Position numbers and translations under genes: made by a program. DNA of 64,000 nt from Candidatus Poribacteria bacterium (GTDB taxonomy: Bacteria > Poribacteria > WGA-4E > GCA-2687025). Below, one piece after another: positions 5,502-54,521 of this stretch. The notes below the pieces were generated by a model. That model worked only from the letters and a program-made list of their open reading frames with translations. It did no database searches and was not told where the DNA came from. The number at the start of each line of letters is the position of its first letter. Positions within the stretch are counted from its first letter, which is position 1. The stretch lies in assembly GCA_016866785.1 (NCBI GenBank), contig VGLH01000003.1:4795-68794 (forward strand), given 5' to 3'.

Positions 5502-7940
5502 TCACCGGTCGATCAGCAACCGACGGGTTTGCCGCATTCCTGAGCCTTCCAGCACGACCCAATAGACCCCGGACGCGACCGGCTCGCCGCGTTCGTTGCG
5601 CCCGTCCCAGTGCAGCGCCGTCGCCCGAGTCGTGTAGTCTCCTGCGGAGAGTTCACCCAGCGACCAGCGACGAACCAGTGTCCCGGCAACGTCGACGATC
5701 CGCGCGTCGAGAGTCGCCGTCTGTCCGAGCCGGAAGGGAATCCACACCTCCGGGTTCGCCGGAGACGGATACGCGGACAGAAGCTCAAGAGCCTTCGAGC
5801 GCGAATCGTCAGCCCATCCCGGCGCCGAGATCGGATGCACCGACAGGTCGGAGCCGACGAGCTCGCCTCCGAGAATCGACGATGCGCCCGTAGCCCGCAC
5901 GCGCAAGGCGTACTCCGACGCCGGCAGCGGCGTCCCAGCGACCGACACGAGCGACACGCCCGTTGCGTCGGGAAGCGTCAGCACATTCGCCGTCGGTGGA
6001 ACCAGCTCGTACACGGTTCCGGTGGGAAATCGGAATCGCGCCGCCCAGAGGCGCATCGCGGCTGGCGGCGATATGAGAAATGCGCCGTCGGGCTCGCGCA
6101 ATGCCCGCAGACGAACCGTTCCGGTTGCCGTGGGCGGAGCCGCCGGCACGCTTTTCTCGCCGAAATGCTTGGCGACGATGACCAGATCGGCGATGTCCAC
6201 GACGCCGTCGCCGGACAGGTCGGGGTTCAGCCCGATGAACGGACCCGACTCGCCGAAACGCTGCGCGACCAGCACCAAGTCCAGGATATCGACCGCGCCG
6301 TCGCGGTTGACGTCGCCGGTAAAGGACACCGACGGCATGCCGTGGTCGTCGAAGATGGAGAGCATCTCGGCTCGCTGCGGGTAGCCGCGTTCGATCCATC
6401 CGTCGCGGAACTTCTTGACGGTTTTGGGACGATAGGCGACGAAGAGCTCCCACACGCGCGGGAACTGGTTGGCGATCCCGTCGTCGTCCACATCGCGCGT
6501 CGTGTCCACGCTCTGGGAACCGTCGGAGAGGTCCCACAGGACGCTGGCGACCGCGCCTTCGACGATGCTGCCGTCCGAGTTGCGTCCCTTGCCGTCGATC
6601 GTGCCGGTCCACCAGTCGTTCGTCTCGATGTTGGGCAGGTTCGCGTTCCGGTAGGACCGGACGTTCAGCGCTCGGTCGTCCACCAGCGCCTCCATGAACT
6701 CCGCCCATCCCTCACTGACGGCGAACTCCGAATCGGAGACCGTATGAAGCGTGTGACCGCCGTCCACCCCGTTGCCGAAGGGGATCGCGTCGAACCGGTC
6801 GCCGTAGGCTGATGTCATCACGGCATGTCCGTACTCGTGCAGCGCGGCTTCGCGCAGGATGCCGTCGTTGAACCCGATGCGGATGACCTCGAACGAGACG
6901 ATGCCGATGCGGGCGTCTACGCTGTAGTAGGTTCCGCCGTCGAGAGATGGGTACTCGACTGTGACGCTCTTCCGTTCGAAGCCCACCGTGCGGCGAAGGT
7001 AGTCGCGCTCATCGAGCATCGCGCCGAAGATGCGACCGATGGCGTGCCGTTCGTCGTCGAGTCCCCAATGTACCGCCAGATCGGTCGTCGTCCCGCCGGC
7101 AGCGGGAGCCCAGTCCGTGCTCCGGCGGTACAGGGTTCCCCGGTGATCCGTCATCGTGAGGTGCGCGTTGCGAACCAAGACATTGATGCGGTACGTGCGA
7201 GCCGTCCCGTCGGCTCCCTTCGCCGGAACGTCCACAAAGGCGAAGCGCCCATCGACGTCGGTGAAGACCGTCTCGATCACCTGCTCGATCAGAAAGGCTC
7301 CGCGAGCGACTCGTTCCGCGAGCTGGACGGTGACCTCCCGAATCGGCAGCGCGATGCCCTCGACGTCGTCGTGGTACGTGACGCGTCCGGTGAACCGGGC
7401 ATCGCCGGGCGCGACGACCGCCGCTGGAGCGCGTTTCACCTGGGCGTCGAGTGTCCGTCCTCCGGATGCATCGATGGGGAATGGAGTGGCGCTGTCTTGG
7501 GAACTGGACGCCTGCACGCGCAGGTAGCGGACGAAGAGCTCGGGTTCCGGCTTCGTGGAACCGGTTCCGCCGACCGGAGTCAGCGCGGCGACGATGTCGT
7601 AGTTCCCGGGTCGGCTGACGCCGACCGCGACGCTCCGCACGAGTTCGCCATCCGACGGGACGTACACCATCTCTGTCCGCGCGGACAGCACCGAAGCGCC
7701 CTTGCCAACCCGCCATTCGAGCCGCGCAACCGTGCTCGTTCCCGTCATCGCGCGTACGCGCAGCAGATACCCGCCGACCCGGGCGAGGCTGGGAACCACC
7801 TGCGGATCGACCGACCCGACGAACCATGGGTCCCGCTGCCGGGCGCATCGAGTTTCCATGCGCTCGGCGGTCGCTCCCAAGGACGCGCACCACAGGAGCA
7901 CCAGCGCCAGAACCGTCCATCGACCCTTCACCGGAGACAT
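5502..7940 (-). CDS. Secreted multidomain zinc metalloprotease (HExxH) with dockerin-type repeats and a Por-secretion-tail/FlgD-Ig-like C-terminal domain
   Basis: Signal peptide MSPVKGRWTVLALVLLWCASLGATA. HEYGH zincin motif (ALHEYGHAV). Two dockerin type I repeats DVNRDGAVDILDLVLV and DLSGDGVVDIADLVIV. C-terminal about 90 aa (YPSPANPEVWIPF...VASGVYWVVL) matches the T9SS CTD / FlgD-Ig pattern. Confidence 0.75.
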   Translation of the reverse strand: MSPVKGRWTVLALVLLWCASLGATAERMETRCARQRDPWFVGSVDPQVVPSLARVGGYLLRVRAMTGTSTVARLEWRVGKGASVLSARTEMVYVPSDGELVRSVAVGVSRPGNYDIVAALTPVGGTGSTKPEPELFVRYLRVQASSSQDSATPFPIDASGGRTLDAQVKRAPAAVVAPGDARFTGRVTYHDDVEGIALPIREVTVQLAERVARGAFLIEQVIETVFTDVDGRFAFVDVPAKGADGTARTYRINVLVRNAHLTMTDHRGTLYRRSTDWAPAAGGTTTDLAVHWGLDDERHAIGRIFGAMLDERDYLRRTVGFERKSVTVEYPSLDGGTYYSVDARIGIVSFEVIRIGFNDGILREAALHEYGHAVMTSAYGDRFDAIPFGNGVDGGHTLHTVSDSEFAVSEGWAEFMEALVDDRALNVRSYRNANLPNIETNDWWTGTIDGKGRNSDGSIVEGAVASVLWDLSDGSQSVDTTRDVDDDGIANQFPRVWELFVAYRPKTVKKFRDGWIERGYPQRAEMLSIFDDHGMPSVSFTGDVNRDGAVDILDLVLVAQRFGESGPFIGLNPDLSGDGVVDIADLVIVAKHFGEKSVPAAPPTATGTVRLRALREPDGAFLISPPAAMRLWAARFRFPTGTVYELVPPTANVLTLPDATGVSLVSVAGTPLPASEYALRVRATGASSILGGELVGSDLSVHPISAPGWADDSRSKALELLSAYPSPANPEVWIPFRLGQTATLDARIVDVAGTLVRRWSLGELSAGDYTTRATALHWDGRNERGEPVASGVYWVVLEGSGMRQTRRLLIDR

Positions 7941-29093: not shown

Positions 29094-32000
29094 GTGCCGA
29101 GGGGCCCGAGCGGCAACCCTACCGATCCGCTCGCGAATACAGGAATCACTGCGGCGCCTGCTGTGCCAGGCGTTCCCGAGGGCACCCCATTGAGCGTCCG
29201 ACGTACCGAGTACCGCGACGTCGTCTCCGTGCGCGGCGCCCGGGTTCACAACCTCCAGAACATCGACCTCGACCTGCCGAAGAACTCCCTGATCGTCTTC
29301 ACGGGCGTCAGCGGCTCCGGGAAGTCGTCCCTCGCGTTCGACACGCTCTACGCCGAGGGACAGCGCCGCTACGTCGAATCCCTTTCCGCCTACGCGCGGC
29401 AGTTCCTGGGACAGATGGAGAAGCCGGACGTCGACTTCATCGGCGGCTTGTCGCCGACCATCTCCATCGACCAGAAGTCGACGGGTCACAATCCGCGTTC
29501 CACCGTCGCGACGATCACCGAGGTCTACGACTACCTGCGGCTCCTCTTCGCGCGCGTCGGGGAGCTTCACTGCCTCGAGTGCGGCAAGCCCGTCGGCATG
29601 CAGACCCGCGACGAGATCATCGACCGGTTGATGGAGCTCCCGGACGGTCAGCGCGTCCAGATCCTGGCTCCCATCGTTCAGGGCAGGAAGGGCGAGTACC
29701 GCGAGGAGCTCGCCGACGCCCTCAAGGCGGGATTCGCTCGCGCCCGCATCGACGGGCAGGTCTTCGAGCTGACCGACACGGTCGATCTGGATCGCAGCCT
29801 GAGACACAACATCGAGATCATCGTCGACCGTATCCAGGTCCGCGAAGGCATCCGCGACCGGCTCAGCGAGTCCATCGAGACGGCGATGAAACTCGCCGGC
29901 GGCACGATGATCGCCGACCTGATGGACGGGACGGAGCACTTCTTCAGCCAGAAGTACGCCTGCGCCGAGTGCGGCATCAGCTATGAGGAACCCTCACCAC
30001 AAGCGTTCTCCTTCAACAGCCCGAAGGGCGCGTGCTCCGCCTGCAACGGTCTCGGCGAGACGATCCGCATGTCGCCAGCGAAAGTCGTCGCGGACACATC
30101 GAAGTCGATCCGCCAAGGCGCGATCGCCTTCTGGGGCGATCTGGGAACACTCCGAGTCCGTCACGTCGCCGAGAGCCTAGCCGTGCACATGAAGTTCTCG
30201 CTCGACACGCCGTGGCGCGATCTCCCGGAGACCACGAGGGAGGCGGTTCTGTACGGCTGCGGACGCGAGCGCATCCACTTCGTCTACAAGAACCATCGGG
30301 GACGCGAGTTCCACTATGACAGCCGGTACGAAGGCGTCATCCCGCCGGAGGAGCGCCACTACTTCGACGCGGACAACGAGAACGCCCGCCGGTGGTACTC
30401 CCGCTTCATGGACGCCCAGTCGTGTCCGGAGTGCCACGGATCAAGGCTCCGACCCGAAGCGCGCGCCGTCCACATCGCCGGCAAGACGATCCTCGACGTG
30501 ACCGAGATGAGCGTCCAGGACGCGCGGGCGTTCTTCACCGACCTGCCGCTGACGAAGCGTCAGGAGACCATCGCGGAGCAAGTGCTCAAGGAGATTCGGG
30601 GACGTCTCTGGTTCCTGTCGAACGTCGGACTGCACTACCTCAGCCTGAACCGCACGGCTCCGACGCTCTCCGGCGGCGAAGCTCAGCGCATCCGGCTCGC
30701 CAGCCAGATCGGAACGGGGCTCGTCGGTGTTCTCTACATTCTGGACGAGCCGAGCATCGGGCTTCACGCGCGAGACAACAAGAAACTGCTCGACACGCTC
30801 AAGCATCTGCGCGACATCGGAAACACGATCATCGTCGTCGAGCACGATGAGGAGACGATGCGCGCCGCCGACTTCATCGCCGACTTCGGTCCCGGAGCGG
30901 GCGTCAAGGGGGGTAATCTCGTCGTCTCAGGCTCTCCCGCCAAGGTCGCTGCGACGCCGGAGAGCATCACGGGCCAGTACCTGGCTCACCAGCGCGCGAT
31001 TCCCATACCGGAGAGCCGTCGCGCTCCCAACGGTAAGTGGTTGGGGATCCGCAACGCCCGGCAGAACAACCTCAAGTCGCTCGACATCGACCTGCCGCTG
31101 GGCGTCTTCACGGCGGTGACGGGGGTCTCGGGCTCCGGCAAGTCGTCGCTCCTCAACGACATCCTGGCGAAGGCGCTCCTGCGCGACCTGATGCGCGCCG
31201 AGGAGACGCCCGGCGACTACGACGCCATCGAGGGCGTCGAGCATCTCGACAAAGCCATCGTCATCGACCAGTCGCCTATCGGCCGGACGCCCCGCTCAAA
31301 TCCTGCGACCTACGTGAAGCTGTTCGATCACATCCGCAATCTCTTCGCCGAGCTGCCGGAGAGCCGGGTTCGCGGCTACCAGCCCGGACGATTCAGTTTC
31401 AACGTGAAGGGCGGGCGCTGCGAGGCGTGCGAAGGGAACGGACTCAAGCGCGTCGAGATGCACTTCCTCGCCGACGTGTGGGTGAAGTGCGAAGTATGCA
31501 ACGGCGCGCGGTTCAACGACGAGACGCTCGCCGTCCTCTACAAGGGCAAGAGCATCTCCGAAGTCCTCGACATGGACGTCCAGGAAGCGTTGACGCACTT
31601 CGCCGACATCCCGAAGATACGGCGCGTGCTGAAGACGCTCCACGATGTCGGGCTCGACTACATCAAGCTGGGGCAGCCGGCTCCGACGCTTTCCGGCGGC
31701 GAAGCCCAGCGCGTCAAGCTCGCGAAGGAGCTCGCGCGCGTCGCAACGGGACGCACGCTCTACATCCTCGACGAACCGACGACCGGGCTCCACTTCGAGG
31801 ACGTCCGCAAGCTGCTCGAAGTCCTCCACAAGCTGGTGGACAAGGGCAACTCCGTCATCGTCATCGAGCACAACATGGAGGTCATCAAGACCGCCGACCA
31901 CATCATCGACCTGGGGCCCGAAGGTGGCGAGGAAGGCGGCTATCTCGTCGCGATCGGCACGCCGGAAGAGCTCGCGCACGGCGTCGTCGTCGGAGAGCTC

Positions 32001-34910
32001 CCGTCCGCGACGGGGCGCATCCTGCGCCAGGTTCTCGGCATCGACGGCGAGTCGCGACCGGAGCTCAGCGACCACACCGACGACTCGACTCCAAGATCGG
32101 AGCTCATCGACGAGATACGCGTCGTCGGAGCGCGCGAGCACAACCTGCAAAACGTGAGCGTCAACATCCCCCAGGGCAAGATGGTCGCGTTCACGGGCGT
32201 GTCCGGTTCCGGAAAGACCTCGCTCGCCATCGACACGATCTACGCGGAAGGTCAACGGCGGTACGTCGAGTCACTCTCCGCCTACGCGCGGCAGTTCTTG
32301 GGGCAGATGGAGAAGCCCCGCGTCGAGCACATCGAGGGGCTCTCTCCCGCCATCGCCATCGACCAGAAGCAGCCCAGCAAGAGCCCGCGCTCGACCGTCG
32401 GAACCGTCACCGAGGTCTACGACTACCTGCGCGTGCTGTTCGCCCGCGCGGGGACGGCGCATTGCCCGGAGTGCCATCGACCCGTCGGGAGCCAGTCCGT
32501 CCAGCAGATCGCCGACAACATCCTGCGCCTGCCCGAAGGGAGCCGGCTCCACGTCCTCGCGCCGGTGCAGTTGGCGCGCGGCGAGGAGTACGCCGAGGTT
32601 TTCGACCGCGCCGCAAAGCGCGGGTTCGCCCGCGTCTGGATCAATGGTAAGGTGGAGGAGCTCCCAACTGCCGTCGTCCTCGACCGGCGCATCCGGCACG
32701 ACGTCGGGATCGTCGTGGATCGTGTCATCCTGCGCAAAGACGAGCGTTCGCGGCTCTCGGAAGCCGTCGAAGTCGCGCTCCGTGAGGGCAAGGGCGTTCT
32801 GCGGATCGTGGGCGTGTCGCCCAACGAGGATGGCGACGAGACACCCGTCTCGGAGTCCTTCAGCGAGCATTTCGCATGCGTGCCCTGCGGTCTGAGCTTC
32901 AAGCCGCTGACGCCGAAGAACTTCTCGTTCAACAGCCCGTTGGGCATGTGCCCGCGCTGCGAGGGCATCGGGCGGGTCGTCGGAGCCGACCAATCCCTCA
33001 TCGTGCCGAACCCTCGCAAGTCGATCCGCGCGGGAGCCGTCCTCGTGTGGGGCGAGGTGACGTCGGAGCATCCGATGTCGCCGTTTCTGGTCGTGCTCGC
33101 CAAGAAGATGGGCTTCTCGCTGACGACGCCCTTCGAGAAGCTACCGGACGAAGTCCGCGAGATCATCCTCTACGGCTCGCGCGAGGTCTTCGACGTAAAC
33201 GGCGGCAGAGCCCGGTTCCGAGGAGCCGCCGGAGGAACCGACTGGGTCCACGTGCGCGGCGCCTTCGCGCGGGATATCCGGCCGTTTCTCCGCGAGGTGG
33301 ACTGCCCGACGTGCCGGGGTTCCCGGCTCCAGCCCTTTGCGCTGAGCGTGCAGTTGGGCGGCAAGACGATCGTCGAGTGGACGCGCATCACGATCCGCGA
33401 GGCGCTCGACGCGATGATGTCGCTCCGGCTGACGGGTCAGCTCGAAGCCGTGGCGCGCGACTTGCGGGAGGAGATATCGAACCGGCTGCGGTTCCTCTGC
33501 GATGTCGGGCTCGACTACCTGACGCTCGCGCGCCCAGCTCCCAGCCTGTCCGGTGGCGAAGCGCAGCGGATTCGCCTGGCGTCGCAGTTGGGTTCTGGGC
33601 TGACTGGCGTGCTCTATGTCTTGGACGAGCCGACCATCGGTCTGCATCCGCGCGACAACGACCGGCTCATCAAGGCGCTGCACCGGCTCCGCGACCTGGG
33701 GAACACGGTTCTGGTGGTAGAACACGACGAGGAGACGATCCGCACGGCAGATCACATCCTCGACTTCGGACCGCGAGCCGGCACGCACGGCGGCGAGATC
33801 GTCGCACAGGGCTCCCTGTCGGTCCTCGAGTCCACGAAGTCGTCGCTGACCGGGCAGTATCTGTCCGGCGTCGAGGCGATTCCCAAGCCCCCGAAGCGTC
33901 GGCGCGGCAGGAACGCGGCGCTGGAGATCATCGGCGCAACCCATCGGAACCTGAAGAACGTCGACGTCTCCATACCGCTTGGAACGCTCACCTGCGTCAC
34001 GGGCGTGTCGGGCTCCGGCAAGTCGTCGCTCATCGAGGAGACGCTCTATCCGGTCTTGGCGCGCAAGCTGAATGGGGCGTCGACGCACGCAGGGGCGCAC
34101 CGCGCCATCCGGGGCATGGAGCATCTCGACAAGGTCATCAACGTCGATCAGAAGCCCATCGGCGAGACCCCCCGGAGCAATCCGGCGACCTACACGGACG
34201 TCTTCACCGACATCCGTTACCTCTACGCGGAACTGCCGGACGCCCAAGCGAGGGGCTTCGACTCGCGGCGGTTCAGCGCGAACCTCGCCGAAGGTCAGTG
34301 CGAGACGTGCCGGGGCAACGGCTACACGCGGATCGAGATGCAGTTCCTGCCCGACGTGTGGATCGAGTGCGACGCCTGCGCCGGAAGCGGCTACAACAAG
34401 GCGACGCTCCAGGTGCGATACCGCGACAAGAGCATCGCCGACGTGCTCAAGATGACCGCCGCCGACGCGCGCGAGCACTTCGCGAAGATCCCCAAGGTCG
34501 CGCGGAAGCTCCAGACGCTCTGCGATGTCGGACTCGACTACATCCAGTTGGGGCAGTCGGGAACGACGCTGTCCGGCGGCGAGGCGCAGCGCGTCAAGCT
34601 CGCCCGCGAACTCGCCCGGCGGTCGAGCGCGGGGACCGTCTACGTCATGGACGAACCGACGACGGGTCTGCACTTCGACGACGTGCGCAAGCTGCTGGAA
34701 GTGCTCCACCGGCTCGTCGATCAGGGGAGCACCGTCGTCGTCATCGAGCACAACATGAACGTCATCGCCGCAAGCGATCACGTCATCGACCTTGGACCCG
34801 AAGGCGGCGACGCGGGAGGCTACGTCGTCGGAACCGGCACGCCGGAGGACATCGCGCGGATCGACGCATCGCACACGGGTCGGTTCCTGCGACCCATCCT
34901 CGGGCACTGA
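29094..34910 (+). CDS. uvrA: Tandem-fused double UvrA (two complete excinuclease ABC subunit A units in one 1,938-aa polypeptide)
   Basis: Each half has Walker A GVSGSGKSS/GVSGSGKTS with YAEGQRRYVESLSAYARQFLGQMEKP, two ABC signatures (LSGGEAQRIRLAS, LSGGEAQRVKLA), zinc-finger cysteine pairs (CLECG..CAECG..CSACNG in half 1; CPECH..CVPCG..CPRCEG in half 2), a UvrB-binding-length insert and an insertion-domain region. The second unit starts about 32100 (IRVVGAREHNLQN). The start codon is uncertain: GTG 29094 or TTG 29185 with GAGGGC upstream. Confidence 0.85.
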   Translation: MPRGPSGNPTDPLANTGITAAPAVPGVPEGTPLSVRRTEYRDVVSVRGARVHNLQNIDLDLPKNSLIVFTGVSGSGKSSLAFDTLYAEGQRRYVESLSAYARQFLGQMEKPDVDFIGGLSPTISIDQKSTGHNPRSTVATITEVYDYLRLLFARVGELHCLECGKPVGMQTRDEIIDRLMELPDGQRVQILAPIVQGRKGEYREELADALKAGFARARIDGQVFELTDTVDLDRSLRHNIEIIVDRIQVREGIRDRLSESIETAMKLAGGTMIADLMDGTEHFFSQKYACAECGISYEEPSPQAFSFNSPKGACSACNGLGETIRMSPAKVVADTSKSIRQGAIAFWGDLGTLRVRHVAESLAVHMKFSLDTPWRDLPETTREAVLYGCGRERIHFVYKNHRGREFHYDSRYEGVIPPEERHYFDADNENARRWYSRFMDAQSCPECHGSRLRPEARAVHIAGKTILDVTEMSVQDARAFFTDLPLTKRQETIAEQVLKEIRGRLWFLSNVGLHYLSLNRTAPTLSGGEAQRIRLASQIGTGLVGVLYILDEPSIGLHARDNKKLLDTLKHLRDIGNTIIVVEHDEETMRAADFIADFGPGAGVKGGNLVVSGSPAKVAATPESITGQYLAHQRAIPIPESRRAPNGKWLGIRNARQNNLKSLDIDLPLGVFTAVTGVSGSGKSSLLNDILAKALLRDLMRAEETPGDYDAIEGVEHLDKAIVIDQSPIGRTPRSNPATYVKLFDHIRNLFAELPESRVRGYQPGRFSFNVKGGRCEACEGNGLKRVEMHFLADVWVKCEVCNGARFNDETLAVLYKGKSISEVLDMDVQEALTHFADIPKIRRVLKTLHDVGLDYIKLGQPAPTLSGGEAQRVKLAKELARVATGRTLYILDEPTTGLHFEDVRKLLEVLHKLVDKGNSVIVIEHNMEVIKTADHIIDLGPEGGEEGGYLVAIGTPEELAHGVVVGELPSATGRILRQVLGIDGESRPELSDHTDDSTPRSELIDEIRVVGAREHNLQNVSVNIPQGKMVAFTGVSGSGKTSLAIDTIYAEGQRRYVESLSAYARQFLGQMEKPRVEHIEGLSPAIAIDQKQPSKSPRSTVGTVTEVYDYLRVLFARAGTAHCPECHRPVGSQSVQQIADNILRLPEGSRLHVLAPVQLARGEEYAEVFDRAAKRGFARVWINGKVEELPTAVVLDRRIRHDVGIVVDRVILRKDERSRLSEAVEVALREGKGVLRIVGVSPNEDGDETPVSESFSEHFACVPCGLSFKPLTPKNFSFNSPLGMCPRCEGIGRVVGADQSLIVPNPRKSIRAGAVLVWGEVTSEHPMSPFLVVLAKKMGFSLTTPFEKLPDEVREIILYGSREVFDVNGGRARFRGAAGGTDWVHVRGAFARDIRPFLREVDCPTCRGSRLQPFALSVQLGGKTIVEWTRITIREALDAMMSLRLTGQLEAVARDLREEISNRLRFLCDVGLDYLTLARPAPSLSGGEAQRIRLASQLGSGLTGVLYVLDEPTIGLHPRDNDRLIKALHRLRDLGNTVLVVEHDEETIRTADHILDFGPRAGTHGGEIVAQGSLSVLESTKSSLTGQYLSGVEAIPKPPKRRRGRNAALEIIGATHRNLKNVDVSIPLGTLTCVTGVSGSGKSSLIEETLYPVLARKLNGASTHAGAHRAIRGMEHLDKVINVDQKPIGETPRSNPATYTDVFTDIRYLYAELPDAQARGFDSRRFSANLAEGQCETCRGNGYTRIEMQFLPDVWIECDACAGSGYNKATLQVRYRDKSIADVLKMTAADAREHFAKIPKVARKLQTLCDVGLDYIQLGQSGTTLSGGEAQRVKLARELARRSSAGTVYVMDEPTTGLHFDDVRKLLEVLHRLVDQGSTVVVIEHNMNVIAASDHVIDLGPEGGDAGGYVVGTGTPEDIARIDASHTGRFLRPILGH

Positions 34911-37751: not shown

Positions 37752-39467
37752 GTGGGACGCGCAGCCGGATACTCGCTGAGCTCGGCGCTCTCCGTTCTCT
37801 GGCTCCTCGGCGTTTCCCCTGTCCCAACGGACGCACGGTCCTTCCCGACGTTCGTCGACGCGACGGACGAGAGCGGCATCGATTTCCGCCATTTCGACGG
37901 CAGAACCGGGCGCAAGTACCTGCCGGAGACACTCGGTTCCGGCGCGGCGTTCTTCGACTACGACGGCGACGGGTGGCTCGACCTCTACGTCGTCAACGGA
38001 GCCGATCTGCCCGGCTCATCGACGTTCCCGCCTCCCACGAACCGCCTCTACCGCAACCTGGGCGACGGAACCTTCGCCGACGTGACCGCCTCCTCCGGCA
38101 CGGGCGACACGGGCTACGGCTTCGGCTGCGCCGTCGCGGACTACGATAACGACGGCGACCTCGACCTCTACGTGACCAACTTGGGGCGGAACGTCCTCTA
38201 TCGCAACAACGGCGACGGGACGTTCTCGGACGTCTCGTCCTTCGCCGGCGTTGCGGACGATCGGTGGAGCACGAGCGCCGCCTTTGGCGACTACGATGGC
38301 GACGGATGGCTCGACCTGTTCGTCGTCAACTACATGCGGTACGAGTTCCATGGCACGGCAGCGGCGATGATCGCCGGTCAGCCCACCTATCGCAGCCCGG
38401 TCGATCAGCTTCCCGGCAGCGAGTTCGTGCCGGAGTCCCCGGTTCTCTACCGCAACAACCACGACGGAACTTTCACGGACGTGACCGACACGGCGGGAGT
38501 GAACCGACCGGGCATCGGGCTCGCCGTCGCCGTGGGCGACTACGACAATGACGACGACCCGGACATCGCCGTCGCCAACGACATGGAGCGCGACACGCTC
38601 TATCGCAACAACGGAGATGGCACGTTCGCCGACATGACAATGACTGCCGGCACGGGGTACGACGAGAACGGCATCCCCGGTAGCGGCATGGGCGCATCGT
38701 TCGGCGACTACGACAACGACGGTGACCTCGATCTCCTGGTCAGCAATGCGTCGTCGATGCCCGCGATCTTGTACCGCAACGACGGTGACGGCATGTTCAC
38801 CGACGTGGGCTGGCAGTCCGGGGTCGCCGTCGCGACGCTGCCGTGGTTCAAGTGGTCTGCAGAGTGGTTCGACGCCGACCTGGACGGCTGGCTCGACATT
38901 CTCGTCGTGAACGGCCACCTGCAGGACAACATCGCGGAATTCACGGATCAGCAGTACGCGCAGCGCCTGACCTTGCTTCGGAACCGAGGGGATGGGACAT
39001 TCTCGGACGTCGCGCGCGAGGCGGGTCTGCTCGCGCTCCCGCCGACGGTCGGCAGAGGAGCCGCCCTCGGAGACTACGACAACGACGGCGACACGGACGT
39101 CTTCGTCGTCAACTCGAATGCGCCACCGACGTTGCTGCGGAACGACGGCTCCGATGCGTCCGAGTGGCTGATGGTCCGAGTTGTGGGCACGGCGGAACGA
39201 ACGGCAGATGGAGCGCGTGTGACGGTCACGGCGGGTGGCATCACGCAGACGCGAGAAGCCCGCGGCGTAGGGAGCTACCTATCGGCACGCGACGACCGAC
39301 TGCTCTTCGGTCTCGGTGACAACCGCGTGGCATCGGTCGCCATCCGGTTCCCCGATATCTCGACTGCCCAGGCGTCCGATGTTCCGTCGCGTCACCTGGT
39401 CGAGTTCGTTCGCGGAGCCGGCTCGCGCGTGACGGAGCTGCGGGCGGTTCGGCGCAAGACACGATAG
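37752..39467 (+). CDS. CRTAC1-family protein (FG-GAP/VCBS repeats plus C-terminal ASPIC/UnbV domain), secreted
   Basis: Repeated DYDGDGWLDLYVVN / DYDNDGDLDLYVTN FG-GAP-type repeats. C-terminal VRVVGTAERTADGARVTVTAGGITQTREARGVGSYLS matches the UnbV/ASPIC pattern. GTG start 2 nt after the polA stop. Confidence 0.8.
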   Translation: MGRAAGYSLSSALSVLWLLGVSPVPTDARSFPTFVDATDESGIDFRHFDGRTGRKYLPETLGSGAAFFDYDGDGWLDLYVVNGADLPGSSTFPPPTNRLYRNLGDGTFADVTASSGTGDTGYGFGCAVADYDNDGDLDLYVTNLGRNVLYRNNGDGTFSDVSSFAGVADDRWSTSAAFGDYDGDGWLDLFVVNYMRYEFHGTAAAMIAGQPTYRSPVDQLPGSEFVPESPVLYRNNHDGTFTDVTDTAGVNRPGIGLAVAVGDYDNDDDPDIAVANDMERDTLYRNNGDGTFADMTMTAGTGYDENGIPGSGMGASFGDYDNDGDLDLLVSNASSMPAILYRNDGDGMFTDVGWQSGVAVATLPWFKWSAEWFDADLDGWLDILVVNGHLQDNIAEFTDQQYAQRLTLLRNRGDGTFSDVAREAGLLALPPTVGRGAALGDYDNDGDTDVFVVNSNAPPTLLRNDGSDASEWLMVRVVGTAERTADGARVTVTAGGITQTREARGVGSYLSARDDRLLFGLGDNRVASVAIRFPDISTAQASDVPSRHLVEFVRGAGSRVTELRAVRRKTR

Positions 39468-46607: not shown

Positions 46608-46800
46608 GTCGGTTCCTCCATTGCGGCGGTTCGACTTCCCCGTGCTCCACACATTAGCCGATCCTGGCGCCAGGCACATTCCTTGAATGCTGTCCGATGG
46701 ACGGCGGGTCGAAGGATCGCGCGGGAACGCGCCGTCGCCTCGTTCTCGGTGTTCGCCGCATTCGGAACGTGTTCCCGATCTGTGCACAGGTGTTCGGATC

Positions 46801-47727
46801 ATGGTCAACGACAGCGCTGCGGCTGAGGTTCTACAGGCACTGGCATCCGGCTATCATACGGTCGATGCGCACGCGCCGGACCGTGCGCCGAACTGGGAGA
46901 GCCTCGTGCGTCGACGCTCGCGCCGCATGGCAATCGCGGCAGTCCTCTCCGCGTGCCTCCACCTGCTGGGAGCCCTCGCGCTGAGCGTCGTGATCATCGT
47001 CCAGAAGTCTGAGCTCATCACGGCGATCACAGCGGACGTCCTGCCATCCACGCCTCCCAAGGTCGTCAAGCGGATGATGACCCATCGCCGGACGCCGCCG
47101 CCCCTCGTCGCACAGACGTCATCCATCGCGACGCCGGATCCGACGCCCGGTCGGCAGCCGATCTTCAACACTCGATCCGTCTTCACCGCCGTCACGGCGT
47201 CGGTCGATACGCCGACGGCGCTGGTCCGCGCGCAGGGCGCTCCTGACGTGTCGCCGATGCGACCTCCCGCCCGCGTTCCGACGAGTCCGGTCGCGACCAT
47301 CGCCACGCAACCGCCGGCATGGGCTCCGCGCTCGGTTTCGGCAGCGCCCGCGAGGATCGACGAGGCGTTTCCGGGGCTTTCGTCCGTGGTGGCGGCGGTA
47401 ACGCCCGAATCGTCCGCGAACCGCATCGCGCCCCAGTATCTCGACGCGATCCGACGCCGCATCGAGAAGTTCCAGCGGTATCCACGGTTTGCGCGCGAAG
47501 CCGGGCTCGAGGGCACAACGAACGTCCTGTTCCTCGTCCGCCGCGACGGGACGGTGAGCAGCGTCGAGGTGCAAGGGTCCTCCGGCTCCAAGGTGCTGGA
47601 CGATGCCGCCGTTTCGGCGATCCGAGAGGCGTCGCCGTTCCCCGCGTTCCCCGCCGAGCAAACCGGGGACTCGCTGCGAATCCTGATTCCGGTCGTGTTC
47701 GAGCTGAAGGAACCTCGCGGGTCCTGA
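46801..47727 (+). CDS. tonB: TonB-family energy transducer
   Basis: N-terminal TM anchor, Pro-rich spacer, C-terminal TonB domain (YPRFAREAGLEGTTNVLFLVRRDGTV...IREASPFPAFP). Confidence 0.65.
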   Translation: MVNDSAAAEVLQALASGYHTVDAHAPDRAPNWESLVRRRSRRMAIAAVLSACLHLLGALALSVVIIVQKSELITAITADVLPSTPPKVVKRMMTHRRTPPPLVAQTSSIATPDPTPGRQPIFNTRSVFTAVTASVDTPTALVRAQGAPDVSPMRPPARVPTSPVATIATQPPAWAPRSVSAAPARIDEAFPGLSSVVAAVTPESSANRIAPQYLDAIRRRIEKFQRYPRFAREAGLEGTTNVLFLVRRDGTVSSVEVQGSSGSKVLDDAAVSAIREASPFPAFPAEQTGDSLRILIPVVFELKEPRGS

Positions 47728-47748
47728 CGCGAGGTCATTACTCCTGCA

Positions 47749-47782
47749 CATGAGGGAGAACCCAACACATGAGGGAGAACCC
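47749..47782 (+). repeat. 15-nt direct repeat CATGAGGGAGAACCC x2 (19-nt period), duplicating an SD-like GAGGGAG plus an ATG
   Basis: Exact copies at 47749-47763 and 47768-47782, immediately upstream of ATG 47784. Confidence 0.6.
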
Positions 47783-47783
47783 G

Positions 47784-48911
47784 ATGAAACGCGTGCAATG
47801 GATCGCGACCGCCATCGCCTGGTTCGCGGTTGCGTCGCTGGTTCCCGTCGAAGCGCAGACCCGAGCCGATCTCGCCGCCGTCGATCGCGCCATCGACAAC
47901 GGGCTCAAGTGGCTCGCGACCCAGAGCGACGCCAAGGGCATCTGGCGCAGCGAGTACGGTCCGGGCGTATCCGGGCTCGTGGCAACGGCGTTCCTGCGCC
48001 ATCCCAAGGGCACGTACACCGCGGACAGCCCTCAGGTGAAGCGCGCGCTCGACTGGTTCGTCAGCCTCCAGAACGCCGACGGGTCCATCTACGACGCCAA
48101 GAGCCAACTCCCGCTGCCCAACTACAGCACGTCCACGGCGTTGATGGCGCTCGCTGCCTCCAAGAACGCGCGCTACGCCACGGCGATCCGGCGCGCGCAG
48201 GAATACATCATGCGCTCGCAAGTCGATGAGGGAGAGGGCGCACAGCCGGAGGATTCCAACTACGGTGGGATCGGATACGGCAGCAATCCGAACCGAAACG
48301 ACCTGTCGAACCTGTCGATGGCGCTGACGGCGCTGCGCGACAGCGGCACATCGGCGGACGCCGCCGTCTGGGACAAGGCGATCAAGTTCCTGAGCCGTCT
48401 CCAGAACAACAGCGAGACGAACGACGAGTCCTGGTCCACCGACGACGGCGGGTTCATCTACGCGCTGGGTAAGAACGAGCCGCCGGAGAGCAAGGCGGGC
48501 AACGACGCCCAGGGACGACCCCGCTCCTACGCGACGATGACCTACGCGGGCGTCATGAGCATGATCTACGCCAACGTCAAACGGGACGATCCGCGCGTTC
48601 AGGCGGCGGTCAAGTGGCTCAGCCAGCACTGGAACCTGGAAGAGAACGAGCCCATCGGAAAGCAGGGACTCTACTACGGCTACCAGACGATGGCGAAGGC
48701 GCTCGCCGCTTACGGGTCGCCGACCTTCACGACGGCATCCGGGCAGAAGATCGACTGGTATCAAGCCCTGTCGCAGCAACTGATCAAGTCTCAGACGCCG
48801 ACCGGGGCGTGGCCCCCCAACGAAGCGGATCGCTGGTACGAGGGCGATCCGGTGCTCGTCACGGCGTACAGCATTCTCGCCCTCGAGGCGGGTTACCCGA
48901 AGACGAAGTAG
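47784..48911 (+). CDS. Secreted prenyltransferase/squalene-oxidase-repeat (terpenoid-cyclase-like alpha/alpha barrel) protein
   Basis: Signal peptide MKRVQWIATAIAWFAVASLVPVEAQ. Repeated Q..DGS/Gly-aromatic motifs (QNADGSIY, NYGGIGYG, DDGGFIYA) like QW/PFTB repeats. Confidence 0.5.
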   Translation: MKRVQWIATAIAWFAVASLVPVEAQTRADLAAVDRAIDNGLKWLATQSDAKGIWRSEYGPGVSGLVATAFLRHPKGTYTADSPQVKRALDWFVSLQNADGSIYDAKSQLPLPNYSTSTALMALAASKNARYATAIRRAQEYIMRSQVDEGEGAQPEDSNYGGIGYGSNPNRNDLSNLSMALTALRDSGTSADAAVWDKAIKFLSRLQNNSETNDESWSTDDGGFIYALGKNEPPESKAGNDAQGRPRSYATMTYAGVMSMIYANVKRDDPRVQAAVKWLSQHWNLEENEPIGKQGLYYGYQTMAKALAAYGSPTFTTASGQKIDWYQALSQQLIKSQTPTGAWPPNEADRWYEGDPVLVTAYSILALEAGYPKTK

Positions 48912-48918
48912 GAGTCGC

Positions 48919-49818
48919 GTGCCGCGTCGCGGACGCCGAGAGCCCACGCCCGGATCGAACGTGAAGGAACCGGTGCGCCCGCGTCCTAAGCGCGCGCTGA
49001 GCCAGCACTTCCTGCACGATCCGGGCGTCCTCGACCGCATCATCGCCGCTGCCGGGATTCAGTCCGGCGACACGGTGCTGGAGATCGGCAGCGGGCCCGG
49101 AGCGCTCACCGAGCGGCTTGCCGCCGCCGTGGGCGGATCCGGACGAGTCCTTGCCGTCGAGATCGACCGCGACCTGATCCCGAAGATCGAGGAACTCGCG
49201 ACACGGTTCCCCGCCGTTCAGGTGGTGCCGACCGATTTCCTTGCAGCGCCGCTGACCGACGTCCTCGCCTCGAACGGCGTCGCGCCTCCTGTCGCCGTGG
49301 TCGGCAACCTTCCGTACAGCATCACGACCCCGATCCTCGAGCGCCTGCTCGACGACTCGCGCGCCTGGACCGCCGCGACGCTCATGGTGCAAGAGGAGGT
49401 AGCTCGTCGCATCGCCGTTCCGCCCGGAAGCCCCGGCTGCGGCTCGATCTCCGTGTGGATCCACTATCGATGCGTCGCCGAGTACTGCTTCCGCGTCGGA
49501 GCCGGGGCGTTCCACCCGCCACCGCGGGTTCGGTCGGCGGTCATCCGTCTCATCCCGCGTTCCGCACCGCCCGTTCACGTCGTCGACGAGCTCCTACTGT
49601 CTCGCGTGACGCGCGCGGCATTCGGACAACGGCGCAAGACGCTTCTCAACGCGTTGTCATCGCTTGGGGCGTCGCGCCCGGAGATCGCGTCCGCGCTGGA
49701 CTTCGCCGGTATCGACTCATCGCGCCGGGGCGAGACCCTGACGCTGGAAGAGCTCGCCCGCCTCGTGAACGCGCTCGCCGCGCGGCTCGGAGCCAATCCC
49801 GTAACCGCGCAGTCCTGA
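48919..49818 (+). CDS. rsmA: 16S rRNA (adenine1518/1519-N6)-dimethyltransferase
   Basis: LSQHFLHDPGVLDRI, VLEIGSGPGALT SAM motif, NLPYSITTP. Confidence 0.9.
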   Translation: MPRRGRREPTPGSNVKEPVRPRPKRALSQHFLHDPGVLDRIIAAAGIQSGDTVLEIGSGPGALTERLAAAVGGSGRVLAVEIDRDLIPKIEELATRFPAVQVVPTDFLAAPLTDVLASNGVAPPVAVVGNLPYSITTPILERLLDDSRAWTAATLMVQEEVARRIAVPPGSPGCGSISVWIHYRCVAEYCFRVGAGAFHPPPRVRSAVIRLIPRSAPPVHVVDELLLSRVTRAAFGQRRKTLLNALSSLGASRPEIASALDFAGIDSSRRGETLTLEELARLVNALAARLGANPVTAQS

Positions 49819-51243: not shown

Positions 51244-51383
51244 GGGCTGCCGCCACCTACGAGGCGGTTACAAAGCGCCCGTCCCCTAAGGGCGCAGCGG
51301 AGGGCTCCCGCAAGGGAGCCTTCGTGCTGTACCGGTCGTGTCTGCGCGTTGTCGCCTGCCGGTGCCCCCGCTAGAATGCGGGC

Positions 51384-54300
51384 ATGGCGACCTCCTCCCT
51401 CCTGCGAGCGATCACCGCCTTCCTCGTGACCGTTCTGCCGGCGCTGCACTCCGCGCCTGCAAAAGCCGCCAAGCCCGTCCGTCGGATCGACGCCACGGGA
51501 GCCCGGTCGGCGCGCATGACCTTCGGCGCGGTCGATCTCTGGATCACCAGCCACGACCTGCCGGAGTTGTCGATCGAGTCCGATTCGCCGTTGTCCGTCG
51601 GGAGGGACGACGAAACCATCGCCGTGGAGGGCGGTTCCGACGACGCCGGAGCCGTGAAGATCCGCTGTCCCGAAGACCTCCGGCTCAATGTGACGGTCGA
51701 GCGCGGCGAAGTCATTGTGACGCGGCTCTACGGAACGCTGGGTCTGCGACTCGTCGACGGCTCCTTGACAATCGACAGAGCCGTGGGCAGCTTCGACGTG
51801 CAGGTCGATCGCGGAAACGTCAGCGCGCGCGTGTTCCTCGCCGATGCCTCGAAGTTCCAGGTCAACCGAGGCGACATCGAGATCGCCGTGCTGGACGCCG
51901 CCGCGTTCCCGCTCGTGCTCAAGTCGGGCGAGGGAGACCTCTCGCTGCGAATCCCGCCAGGCTTTGCCGCTGAGCTCGATGCCCGCGCCGACGGCGGAGC
52001 CGTCAACATCGAAGTGCCCATCGGTCTACGAATCCAGACGCCCGAAGAGAGCGGCGGAAATCGCCGCGTTGCCGGCACGCTAGGAACCGGCGGACCTCTC
52101 GTCGAGCTCCAGACGGACCACGGCGGTATCGACGTCCTCGCTGCCAATGACGAGGAGAGCTCGGAAGCGACGGTTCCGCAGTACGTCGCTCCCCGAATCG
52201 AGGGCGGCATCTCGGTGGACGGCGAGCTCGAAGCCCCCTGGCTCGATGCGCCCAACTTGCGCTTCGAGAGCGCGACAGCAGGTCCATCGACGCACGTCCA
52301 GTTCGCGTGGGATGACGAGCATCTCTTCATCGCGGCTGCCGCCGAGCAGCGCGACTGGGCGTCGCTGGCGCTCAAGGTTCTGCCGGACGATCCTGACTTC
52401 GAGGGCGCGGGCAATGAGCTCGGTTGGGGCATCACGCTCTTGGAGCGACACCTCGGACTGATCGTCAACCCGCTGGGAACCCGACTCGACGACGAACCGG
52501 ACGACGATGGTCTGGAGATCGCGATACGACTGCTGCCCGGCTGGTGGGTTCTCGAAATGTCGGTTCGCGTCGACGGCTTGGAGCCGGATACCACGGGAGC
52601 CGTGCGTCTGTCGCGCGGCGGGACAGAAGACGGTTCCGGCGACCAGAACATCCTCCTCGTGTTGGGCGAGCGACGCGATCCACGCGAAGAGCGCATTCCG
52701 ATCCGGGTCGAGGCAGAGGGCGACGCCACCGCAGATGAGATCACGGAGGCGGTCGGGCTGCCCGCCGATGGGCTGATCCGCCTGTCCGATCTTCCGGCGG
52801 TCGAAGCGCGCGCGCGGCGTCTCGGCTGGTTCCGCGAGGTCGGCGTGTCGCTCACGTCGGACGGCGAGACAGAAACCGCTCTCCTCTCGGCGTCCGGCTT
52901 TCAGGCGACGCGAACGCACTCTCCCGAAATCGATGGCGCGACGGTCTGGCAGTCCGACGATCTTCGATTCGCCTTCGATTGGCGCGACGGCTGGATCGCC
53001 AACGACGCCATCGAGTCGAGGCGGCGGCTCATGGAAAACGCCTACCGCGCGCAGGGCTACGCGCTAGCGACCGTGCGCTCCGACGTGTCCTCGGACGGTC
53101 TGCGCCTGATCGTCGACGAGGGCAGGATCGATGCGATCCGAGTCGTCGGCGCGCGCGCGGTTCCGCGAGCCGACATCGAATCGGAGCTCGCGTCCAGTCG
53201 AGGGCAGCCCTACAACCGATGGGTCGCTGTCGACGACTGTCGAGCGGCAACGGATCGACTGTCGCGCGGGCATCGCGAGTTGATGGGATTGAGCGACGGC
53301 GGCGCCGAACGGGCGGACGGCGGAGTCGTCTGGACCGTCATCGCGGAAGAGCGGAGCCGGGTCGGTGTGTCGGTTGCGCCGATTGTCGCCTTCACGCAGG
53401 TGCACGTCTGGGAACTGGGAGCTACTCTGAGGCTGCGCGATGAGCCCATCGGACGATGGCTGACGGCGATCCGCATGTCCGGGCTCCAATACGCGGAGAG
53501 AACGGACGGACGAACGTACCGCGTGAACGGCAGCGTCGGAGCACGCTACGCCATCGACACGAAGGGCATGCTCGTGATCGGGGGTGTCGCCGAACGCGCC
53601 TCGCGCGCTCAGCTATGGCAGGGCTCCCCCGGTGTGCTTTCGAGCCTGACAGCGCTCGCGTACGGTTCCGTGCCAGGGGACTACCACACGACGGACGGCG
53701 TTCGAGCGTTCACGTGGTTCGCTCCGCATCGCCGCGTCAAGCTCGAAGCGGGGATCAGCGCCGACATCGACCGCTCGCTCCGGTCGCTGCTCGACCGAAG
53801 CATTCTGACGCGCGGAGGCATCCGACCCAACCGCCCCGCATCGGACGGCACGACGCACTACGCGTCGCTCGATTTCATGCTGGACCTTCGCGACGTCGAT
53901 ACGCAAGACGACATGGCGATCCAGCCGAAGCCCGAGCCCTCGCCACGAACGCGGCTCGGGCTTCTCGCGCAGGTCCACTCGGAAGTCGCGCGATTCATTC
54001 CGGCGCTCCCGGACGACGGCTCGCTTCGCCGGGCAGCGTCGATGCGCTTCGTGCGTGTGCAGGGCAATCTCGCCGCCTACGCGCCGCTGGGAGACAGCCT
54101 CCAACTCACCGCCCGTTGCCAGGGTCAGTGGACGCGCCAACGCCTGCCGATTCAGCGCCAATGGTGGCTGGGTGGAGCCGCGACGCTCCGAGGGTTCGAG
54201 ACATCGCAGTTCGTCGGCGACCTCGGAGGCGTCATCGGCGCGGACCTCGCGTGGCATCTGCCGTGGGCAGCGGCGTTCCTCGCCGCGTTCGGAGATGCCG

Positions 54301-54521
54301 GCGCCACCATGTGGGCGGACGAGCCCGAGTGGGATCGGCATTGGTACGGCGACGCTGGCATCTCAATGGGCATCGACGTGACCTCCGACGCGAGCCCGCC
54401 CGCCGCAAGGCTGACGCGCCGCCTCGGGTTCCAGCGGCTCCAGATGGACATCGCGCTGCCGGTTCGTGGAACCGACGAACGAACGCCGCGATTTTGGCTC
54501 TGGGCGACCGTTCCCTACTGA
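51384..54521 (+). CDS. Large outer-membrane protein: DUF4097-like beta-helical (putative adhesin) region + CBM9/DOMON-like domain + POTRA + Omp85 (BamA/TamA-type) beta-barrel
   Basis: Signal peptide MATSSLLRAITAFLVTVLPALHSAPAKA. Repeated short GxVxV/GDIEI beta-strand motifs in 60-300. VDGELEAPWLDAP motif. POTRA-like ENAYRAQGYALATV...IDAIRVVGARAVP. C-terminal barrel ending in an aromatic residue (...WLWATVPY). Confidence 0.65.
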   Translation: MATSSLLRAITAFLVTVLPALHSAPAKAAKPVRRIDATGARSARMTFGAVDLWITSHDLPELSIESDSPLSVGRDDETIAVEGGSDDAGAVKIRCPEDLRLNVTVERGEVIVTRLYGTLGLRLVDGSLTIDRAVGSFDVQVDRGNVSARVFLADASKFQVNRGDIEIAVLDAAAFPLVLKSGEGDLSLRIPPGFAAELDARADGGAVNIEVPIGLRIQTPEESGGNRRVAGTLGTGGPLVELQTDHGGIDVLAANDEESSEATVPQYVAPRIEGGISVDGELEAPWLDAPNLRFESATAGPSTHVQFAWDDEHLFIAAAAEQRDWASLALKVLPDDPDFEGAGNELGWGITLLERHLGLIVNPLGTRLDDEPDDDGLEIAIRLLPGWWVLEMSVRVDGLEPDTTGAVRLSRGGTEDGSGDQNILLVLGERRDPREERIPIRVEAEGDATADEITEAVGLPADGLIRLSDLPAVEARARRLGWFREVGVSLTSDGETETALLSASGFQATRTHSPEIDGATVWQSDDLRFAFDWRDGWIANDAIESRRRLMENAYRAQGYALATVRSDVSSDGLRLIVDEGRIDAIRVVGARAVPRADIESELASSRGQPYNRWVAVDDCRAATDRLSRGHRELMGLSDGGAERADGGVVWTVIAEERSRVGVSVAPIVAFTQVHVWELGATLRLRDEPIGRWLTAIRMSGLQYAERTDGRTYRVNGSVGARYAIDTKGMLVIGGVAERASRAQLWQGSPGVLSSLTALAYGSVPGDYHTTDGVRAFTWFAPHRRVKLEAGISADIDRSLRSLLDRSILTRGGIRPNRPASDGTTHYASLDFMLDLRDVDTQDDMAIQPKPEPSPRTRLGLLAQVHSEVARFIPALPDDGSLRRAASMRFVRVQGNLAAYAPLGDSLQLTARCQGQWTRQRLPIQRQWWLGGAATLRGFETSQFVGDLGGVIGADLAWHLPWAAAFLAAFGDAGATMWADEPEWDRHWYGDAGISMGIDVTSDASPPAARLTRRLGFQRLQMDIALPVRGTDERTPRFWLWATVPY

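Follow-up and report, generated by a model that had tools for sequence, protein, structure and literature searches.

A Poribacteria Omp85 family in which a toastrack–CBM9-like module is fused to three POTRA domains and a BamA/TamA-like barrel

Diderm bacteria and organelles depend on Omp85 proteins to build their outer membranes; by family definition, the POTRA domains of these proteins lie in the periplasm. BamA and TamA, the closest described systems to the one studied here, combine tandem POTRAs with a C-terminal barrel, but a survey of the superfamily in 2014 recognised ten subfamilies, among them WD40-, patatin- and metallophosphoesterase-Omp85, in which other modules stand N-terminal to the barrel and, for the WD40 and metallophosphoesterase fusions, have been proposed to be built-in periplasmic accessories (Heinz & Lithgow 2014, PMC4104836). 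A telling case is the patatin-Omp85 protein PlpD, whose N-terminal domain was long assumed to be exported and was then shown experimentally to stay in the periplasm (PMC11116518). In this report, we focus on a 64-kb window of Candidatus Poribacteria DNA (contig VGLH01000003.1) and on the product of its open reading frame (ORF) 51384..54521 (+), hereafter the query protein, in which a toastrack domain and a CBM9-like domain precede three POTRAs and an Omp85-type barrel. A sequence-only reading of the window had singled out this protein on the premise that Omp85s carry only POTRAs in front of the barrel, which is outdated in view of the fusions catalogued in 2014; what sets the query protein apart is which modules are combined.

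The first finding is that ORF 51384-54521 is a genuine gene and that its product is a composite protein. The ORF starts with ATG and encodes 1,045 aa. Because G+C content is ~66-67% throughout, long spurious ORFs are abundant in the window, and a chance ORF is excluded here because an exhaustive phmmer search with the query protein finds full-length relatives (1,000-1,260 aa, E values from 1.7e-103 down to 1e-21). NCBI lists an identical protein, FJZ36_01080, annotated as hypothetical in a metagenome-assembled genome of Candidatus Poribacteria, and it is called on three further contigs. The architecture was established by combining Pfam and profile searches with two AlphaFold2 (AF2) models that were compared to the PDB using Foldseek, one of the whole protein from a 43-sequence alignment (mean predicted local distance difference test, pLDDT, 86.3) and one of residues 30-435 (pLDDT 87.5, predicted template modelling score, pTM, 0.69). 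The features of the query protein are as follows.

51384..51467 (+): putative signal peptide, residues 1-28, MATSSLLRAITAFLVTVLPALHSAPAKA, with an AKA-A cleavage-like site, read from sequence
51471..52157 (+): toastrack (DUF4097-like) single-stranded beta-helix, residues 30-258, from Pfam, AF2 and Foldseek
52158..52685 (+): CBM9/DOMON-like beta-sandwich, residues 259-434, from family Pfam matches, profile and Foldseek; this copy is trimmed and degenerate
52686..53354 (+): three tandem POTRA domains, residues 435-512, 513-589 and 590-657, from AF2, Pfam and profile
53355..54518 (+): 16-stranded Omp85-type beta-barrel, residues 658-1045, from AF2, Foldseek and Pfam, ending in Tyr
54186..54197 (+): LRGF, loop-6 (L6) motif, residues 935-938, between strands 11 and 12
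54288..54302 (+): FGDAG, strand-13 motif of the (F/G)xDxG pattern, residues 969-973

The C-terminal part of the query protein is an Omp85 barrel preceded by three POTRAs. Pfam recognises ShlB (PF03865, residues 884-997, E 3.4e-11, 43.6 bits for a cut-off of 22.7), Omp85 (PF01103, residues 888-975, E 2.7e-5, 24.3 bits for a cut-off of 24) and one POTRA (PF07244, residues 524-579, E 1.5e-5, 26.1 bits). The AF2 model has 16 long barrel strands at 660-1042 and, at 435-657, a beta-alpha-alpha-beta-beta unit that occurs three times with pLDDT >90; the family profile likewise aligns 451-696 to the POTRA regions of BamA. The sequence-only reading was thus right about an outer-membrane protein with an Omp85 barrel in its last ~400 aa and about its aromatic C-terminal residue (Tyr, replaced by Phe in relatives), but it had counted a single POTRA-like segment and a non-POTRA region of ~600 aa, which are in fact three POTRAs and ~405 aa (residues 30-434). 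When the whole model is compared to the PDB, BamA is found with E 1e-21, and TamA with a template modelling (TM) score of 0.44 over the whole TamA chain. In a comparison of the family profile with PDB sequences, F. nucleatum BamA is found with E 2.9e-40, other BamAs with 1e-28 to 1e-15, TamA with 6.5e-17 and the TpsB protein CdiB with 3.3e-8. The barrel is therefore BamA/TamA-like and not TpsB-like, since the ShlB match is confined to the C-terminal third of that model (positions 196-309 out of 311), a part common to all Omp85 barrels. Two short motifs are kept in the family: LRGF, within a loop-6 consensus LGGxxTLRGxxF, which is the Omp85 (V/I/L)RG(F/Y) hallmark known from BamA and FhaC, and FGDAG, the strand-13 (F/G)xDxG motif, which pairs with the L6 arginine. 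Across 17 aligned sequences, F969 never varies and D971 almost never does.

The N-terminal module is made of two all-beta domains behind the leader, for which AF2 proposes a helix at 2-23 with low pLDDT; relatives likewise begin with hydrophobic leaders. Residues 30-258 are all-beta with pLDDT >90, and the model of residues 30-435 retrieves the toastrack structure 4qrk (E 8.4e-9) as well as 3pet, 3lyc and 4opw. With the query protein alone the DUF4097 match (PF13349, residues 125-251, 20.1 bits) falls just below its cut-off of 22.9, the NCBIfam LiaG model gives a weak match, and hundreds of short DUF4097-like proteins match residues 90-255 by phmmer. The adjoining beta-sandwich (259-434) is modelled with lower confidence (pLDDT 58-79). 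It has no match to the CBM9 family PF06452 when the query protein is searched alone, but Foldseek matches it to the CBM9 structure 1i82 (E 4.8e-9, TM 0.60) and to 7nwn, more distantly to DOMON-like subunits of ethylbenzene dehydrogenase and nitrite oxidoreductase, and the family profile finds 1i82 with 3.7e-12 and 7nwn with 1.8e-12. Core CBM9 motifs are shared within the family (a DGxLxExxW start, VNP, and WxVE(I/M)AIP), and the VDGELEAPW motif of the query protein, at residue 278, lies within this domain. Both the DUF4097-like region and the CBM9/DOMON-like module, which had been proposed from the sequence alone, are thus confirmed. Pfam finds no patatin domain in the query protein, and no catalytic domain was detected.

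The CBM9-like domain of the query protein is the most degenerate in the family, having lost the WNS and YSYW/W-P motifs by deletion. In CBM9-2 of Xyn10A from T. maritima, the sugar is sandwiched between an aromatic pair, presumably Trp71/Trp175, and we take the Trp in NPWEQDSVEIFID of 1i82 to be one of these two stacking residues. The position aligned to it is Trp in the main subgroup of the family, Phe in the query protein and non-aromatic in relatives P0003-P0008, and the C-terminal Trp-bearing segment of the domain is deleted in the query protein.

Another finding of this study is that the toastrack-CBM9-POTRA-barrel combination is conserved across the candidate phylum Poribacteria. The family was found by exhaustive phmmer and by a profile of its main subgroup; a word-indexed search with the query protein returned only itself, and one with the 17-member alignment returned only unrelated Omp85s. 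When the 17 aligned members were scanned individually with Pfam, POTRA was matched in all of them, Omp85 in 11, DUF4097 in 11 (best E 1.9e-8), CBM9_1 (PF06452) in 10 and ShlB in nine. In better-scoring relatives the order is DUF4097, CBM9_1, three POTRA stretches and a nearly full-length PF01103 match (12-308 of 325), with three POTRA stretches recognised in P0009 and P0013 and two in P0010. Clustered at 90% identity, the proteins collected by the main-subgroup profile form at least 142 groups, almost all of 1,140-1,280 aa and bearing the same precomputed set of Pfam domains. All members with a named organism are Candidatus Poribacteria (the query protein, MDA1190236.1, MBI1930783.1, P0192, P0241, chromosome OZ240244.1 and contig JADFGN010000701.1), and a scan of genome contigs with P0010 gave two Poribacteria loci. 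Because the Mb-size contigs that bear the listed members all differ in length, our data suggest that there is one copy of the family per chromosome; a hidden Markov model of the family finds no paralogue of the query protein in the 64-kb window. One candidate for a second Poribacteria Omp85, P0031, was rejected because it proved to belong to this family, with its N-terminus cut off. The query protein belongs to a smaller G+C-rich subgroup (P0002-P0008, with 23-29% identity over the full-length alignment). Mean pairwise identity is 26% in the toastrack, 28% in the CBM9 domain, 22-28% in the POTRAs and 28% in the barrel, and since the modules are about equally conserved, the architecture is maintained and evolves as one unit. 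These proteins are already in public databases under labels that vary between 'hypothetical protein', 'DUF4097 family beta strand repeat protein', 'BamA/TamA family outer membrane protein' and 'outer membrane protein assembly factor BamA'; such generic names are only partial descriptions.

Two kinds of related proteins were also encountered. P0025 (509 aa) and P0026 (409 aa) match residues 93-373 of the query protein, i.e. the toastrack and CBM9-like domains, and have no barrel; they are either stand-alone modules or gene fragments. Conversely, the barrel clade of the query protein (characterised by FNRVxGL, DWSLF, LGGxGTLRGY and a C-terminal RLxRMF) bears other N-terminal modules in two metagenome proteins: both begin with a signal peptide and end with the barrel, and in between P0053 has a CotH kinase-like domain (PF08757, E 3.5e-32) and no POTRA match, P0115 CBM9_1 and POTRA but no toastrack. 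A fusion of CotH to an Omp85 barrel may also be interesting in itself.

Comparison with known systems highlights important similarities and differences. By structure and by profile, the query protein and its family are best matched by BamA (E. coli 5d0o, F. nucleatum 9ccg), which likewise has a 16-stranded barrel that ends in an aromatic residue, tandem POTRAs and the L6 RGF and FxDxG motifs. The query protein differs from BamA by having three POTRAs rather than five (a number that is typical but not universal), ~405 extra N-terminal residues, a score on TIGR03303 below the cut-off and, in eight loci that we compared, no bamA-type synteny. TamA (4c00, 8us1) has three POTRAs and an Omp85 barrel as well, but lacks the extra N-terminal module; the query protein does not match NF047950 (cut-off 625), and no TamB gene is adjacent in the eight loci. 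Patatin-Omp85 proteins of the PlpD type (type Vd) also have a non-POTRA globular domain N-terminal to POTRA and an Omp85 barrel, but theirs is a patatin lipase followed by one POTRA, rather than a toastrack and CBM9-like domain followed by three. WD40-Omp85 and metallophosphoesterase-Omp85 likewise carry alternative N-terminal modules, but these are different ones and the proteins lack the POTRAs, of which the query protein keeps three. Barrels of the relatives match DUF5686 (PF18939) and NF047779 Omp85_fam partially and below curated cut-offs, with different N-terminal regions; these partial matches indicate a shared, divergent barrel clade. Toastrack proteins (LiaG, DUF4097; 4qrk, 4opw) have the same fold and the same repeat pattern of Gly-containing turns as the query protein, but their toastracks are usually found on PspC/LiaF membrane domains or in a stand-alone lipoprotein instead of being fused to an Omp85. 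Finally, the DGxLxExxW start, core motifs and fold of the query CBM9-like domain are those of the T. maritima Xyn10A CBM9 (1i82) and of the CBM9-like domain of PghK, but unlike the Xyn10A module it is not on a glycoside hydrolase, has lost part of the domain and has Phe for the stacking-aligned Trp. The supplements of the 2014 survey (PMC4104836) hold no Poribacteria, DUF4097, PF13349, PF06452 or CBM9 entries, full-text literature searches gave no paper pairing DUF4097/toastrack with Omp85 or CBM9 with POTRA, and searches for Poribacteria together with BamA or outer membrane gave nothing relevant.

What might such a protein do? The reading that we favour, with evenly balanced confidence, is that the query protein is a lineage-specific BamA/TamA-like Omp85 member that faces the periplasm. 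It would be exported by Sec, insert its 16-stranded C-terminal barrel into the outer membrane and let its three POTRAs hang into the periplasm, which would place the toastrack and CBM9-like module at the far end of that arm, as deep in the periplasm as the peptidoglycan layer or deeper still. The N-terminal module is most likely periplasmic, judging from the positions of the POTRAs, the PlpD precedent and a short linker: in the AF2 model, the last strand of the CBM9-like domain (421-427) and the first strand of POTRA1 (437-444) are separated by only ~6-10 residues, and since this is too short to thread the barrel, the module could not reach the surface that way. The barrel and POTRA part would handle beta-strand substrates in the manner of Omp85s, for insertion into the outer membrane or passage across it. 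The toastrack would offer two extended beta-sheet surfaces for docking of a partner or substrate, in line with the docking platform that this fold has been proposed to be in envelope-stress systems (PMC11237479), and the CBM9-like domain could contact glycan or peptidoglycan or, in the degenerate query copy, act as a structural spacer. A possible parallel for the latter domain is the periplasmic CBM9-like sensor of PghK, for which reading of peptidoglycan fragments has been proposed (bioRxiv 10.1101/2023.05.05.539549). The whole N-terminal module might thereby serve as a built-in accessory or anchor, comparable to the WD40 module proposed to be a fused BamB in WD40-Omp85. The substrate and ligand assignments are speculative. 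Several points weigh against a periplasm-facing accessory of this sort. In PSP systems, an intracellular location has been argued for toastrack domains (PMC11237479), the pTM of the whole-protein model is 0.57, so that placement of the domains relative to each other is uncertain, and gene context in the eight loci gives no partner or substrate. Sugar binding by the query protein is uncertain because its CBM9-like domain is both degenerate, to the point that glycan binding may have been lost, and very acidic, and the strong negative charge of the N-terminal module (net -15 and -21) is not expected of a peptidoglycan binder. Last, the single-copy, phylum-wide pattern would also fit a housekeeping BamA.

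That alternative, in which the query protein is the housekeeping BamA of the lineage with an arm shortened from five POTRAs to three and the toastrack-CBM9 module taking the place of POTRA1-2 and/or of the accessory lipoproteins, is one that we consider unlikely. It accounts well for a family that is apparently single-copy per chromosome, is found across many Poribacteria assemblies, has BamAs as its closest solved relatives by profile and includes members labelled BamA or BamA/TamA family by the JGI and NCBI pipelines, and cyanobacterial three-POTRA BamAs with a non-POTRA N-terminal extension provide a precedent (PMC4104836). It is harder to reconcile with TIGR03303, on which the query protein scores 18.5 bits, P0010 68 and P0009 91 for a cut-off of 297, when TamB-adjacent Omp85s of other uncultivated lineages reach ~247, with the absence of skp/lpxD/rseP-type synteny in the eight loci, and with the unrelated N-terminal modules (CotH, or CBM9 alone) of the barrel clade, which make it look accessory and modular. 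We regard as quite improbable the bolder version in which it would be the sole essential BamA of Poribacteria, with the toastrack and CBM9-like domains forming a self-contained arm that reaches through the periplasm and makes up for the POTRAs and Bam lipoproteins that are missing; such an arm might be a beta-augmentation rail, or a chaperone for incoming substrates, anchored at the cell wall. A different possibility is that the barrel is mainly a membrane anchor and that the protein is a structural tether or sensor between the outer membrane and peptidoglycan or an inner-membrane partner, with no insertase or translocase activity. PlpD illustrates that the Omp85 scaffold can be reused for a function other than assembly (PMC11116518), the CBM9-like domain of PghK is linked to peptidoglycan sensing, toastracks have been proposed as docking platforms, and cell-wall hydrolases are neighbours in two loci (Amidase_3 in one, M23 and CtpB in the other). 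These neighbours are not conserved, however, the query CBM9 is degenerate and acidic, and the L6 RGF, FxDxG and three POTRAs have been kept as in active Omp85s, which makes a tether or sensor decidedly unlikely.

The two remaining explanations are weaker still. Self-contained surface display, which the sequence-only reading had raised, would make the query protein a type Vd-like autotransporter exporting a toastrack/CBM9 'adhesin' passenger through its own barrel. A passenger-like module does precede POTRA and barrel, as in the original model of PlpD, toastrack crystal structures have been deposited as 'putative adhesins', and CBM9 modules normally act extracellularly on polysaccharides, but three POTRAs follow the module directly after a linker of ~6-10 residues, the PlpD passenger has turned out to be periplasmic (PMC11116518), BamA/TamA-type barrels are closed to the exterior (PMC4104836), and 'adhesin' in PDB titles is an untested label. 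We therefore consider surface display very improbable, but an assembly protein in a divergent envelope, suggested in the same breath, is plausible. A TpsB-type transporter of two-partner secretion would explain why PF03865 ShlB is the strongest single Pfam match of the query protein and why CdiB is its only match when phmmer is run against the PDB. This identity is effectively refuted by the partial extent of the ShlB match and by relatives matching PF01103 over nearly its full length, by a family profile that favours BamA by ~30 orders of magnitude, by three POTRAs without an N-terminal plug helix (the region after the signal peptide is all-beta) and by the absence of a TpsA gene from all eight loci.

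The genomic setting of the query gene is of limited help in assigning a function. Upstream of it, the following features were found.

48919-49818: ksgA/RrnaAD
ending at 51243: TPR + Amidase_3 gene, directly upstream of the Omp85 gene
51349..51377 (+): promoter-like hexamers, TTGTCG-17 nt-TAGAAT, from a consensus scan, ending 7 nt before the ATG

Downstream lie an Ldh_2 dehydrogenase gene and then, on the minus strand, accC, accB, efp and aroK-aroB. The promoter-like site is the sole one in the region (one site for 0.2 expected in shuffles), and no Shine-Dalgarno-like sequence is visible upstream of the ATG. The mRNA may be leaderless or nearly so, because the site ends 7 nt from the ATG and no Shine-Dalgarno is visible. 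The 140-nt spacer between the amidase and Omp85 genes (51244-51383) is predicted to fold strongly (minimum free energy -75.8 kcal/mol, z -2.9), with a stem at ~51300-51323 of 10 bp of G+C closed by a GCAA loop and without a T-run after it. From these sequence features, the Omp85 gene is probably transcribed on its own. A functional tie to the upstream amidase and ksgA, whose adjacency the sequence-only reading had pointed out, was rejected: their position upstream is correct, but this adjacency is missing at the seven other loci, and the structured spacer and promoter-like site lie in between.

The eight loci compared, i.e. the window and the loci of P0010, P0006, P0004, P0244, P0018, P0005 and P0002, have no neighbour in common. 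The skp, lpxD and rseP genes often flank bamA; neither these, nor TamB (PF04357), nor a TPS-domain cargo gene (TpsA) is present at any of the eight loci. Cell-wall hydrolase neighbours are isolated, Amidase_3 in the window and an M23 peptidase with CtpB beside P0004. An FG-GAP/FlgD_ig subtilase related to the product of 37752-39467 in the window is encoded directly upstream of the homologue P0002 (L016), probably by coincidence. A contrasting arrangement, tamB-bamA/tamA, was seen at L009 2031-8715 and L011 1068-8068, where two metagenome Omp85s (P0155 and P0151) directly follow TamB genes; on the BamA equivalog model, these Omp85s reach ~247 bits.

Other genes in the window are worth recording. 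Just upstream of ksgA (46687-48911, +) are a TonB C-terminal-domain protein (346 aa) and then a 380-aa protein with a squalene-hopene-cyclase C-terminal-like (terpenoid-cyclase/prenyltransferase-type) repeat. A 1,938-aa ORF (29094-34910, +), about twice the length of a normal UvrA, contains two matches to the UvrA interaction domain (UvrA_inter) and two to the UvrA DNA-binding domain, as well as several ABC ATPase P-loops, and looks tandem-duplicated or fused; it is followed by polA, which ends at 37750. At 37752-39467 (+) is a protein of 571 aa with FG-GAP repeats and an ASPIC/UnbV domain. On the minus strand, an 811-aa ORF (5502-7940) combines a dockerin type I domain with an FlgD Ig-like domain at its C-terminus; its product is a secreted module of the cellulosome style, here in a genome labelled as Poribacteria.

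This family is a new architectural variant of the known Omp85 superfamily rather than a system of a new kind, with a domain combination that has not been described before. The protein to which the toastrack belongs here is unambiguously extracytoplasmic, and the family would offer a natural test of the role of a fused periplasmic accessory in an Omp85 machine. Were it the BamA of its lineage, it would represent an alternative way to build the periplasmic arm of BAM, in sponge-associated and free-living Poribacteria alike, and were it their sole essential BamA, it would mean that an uncultivated phylum relies on a differently built BAM machine.

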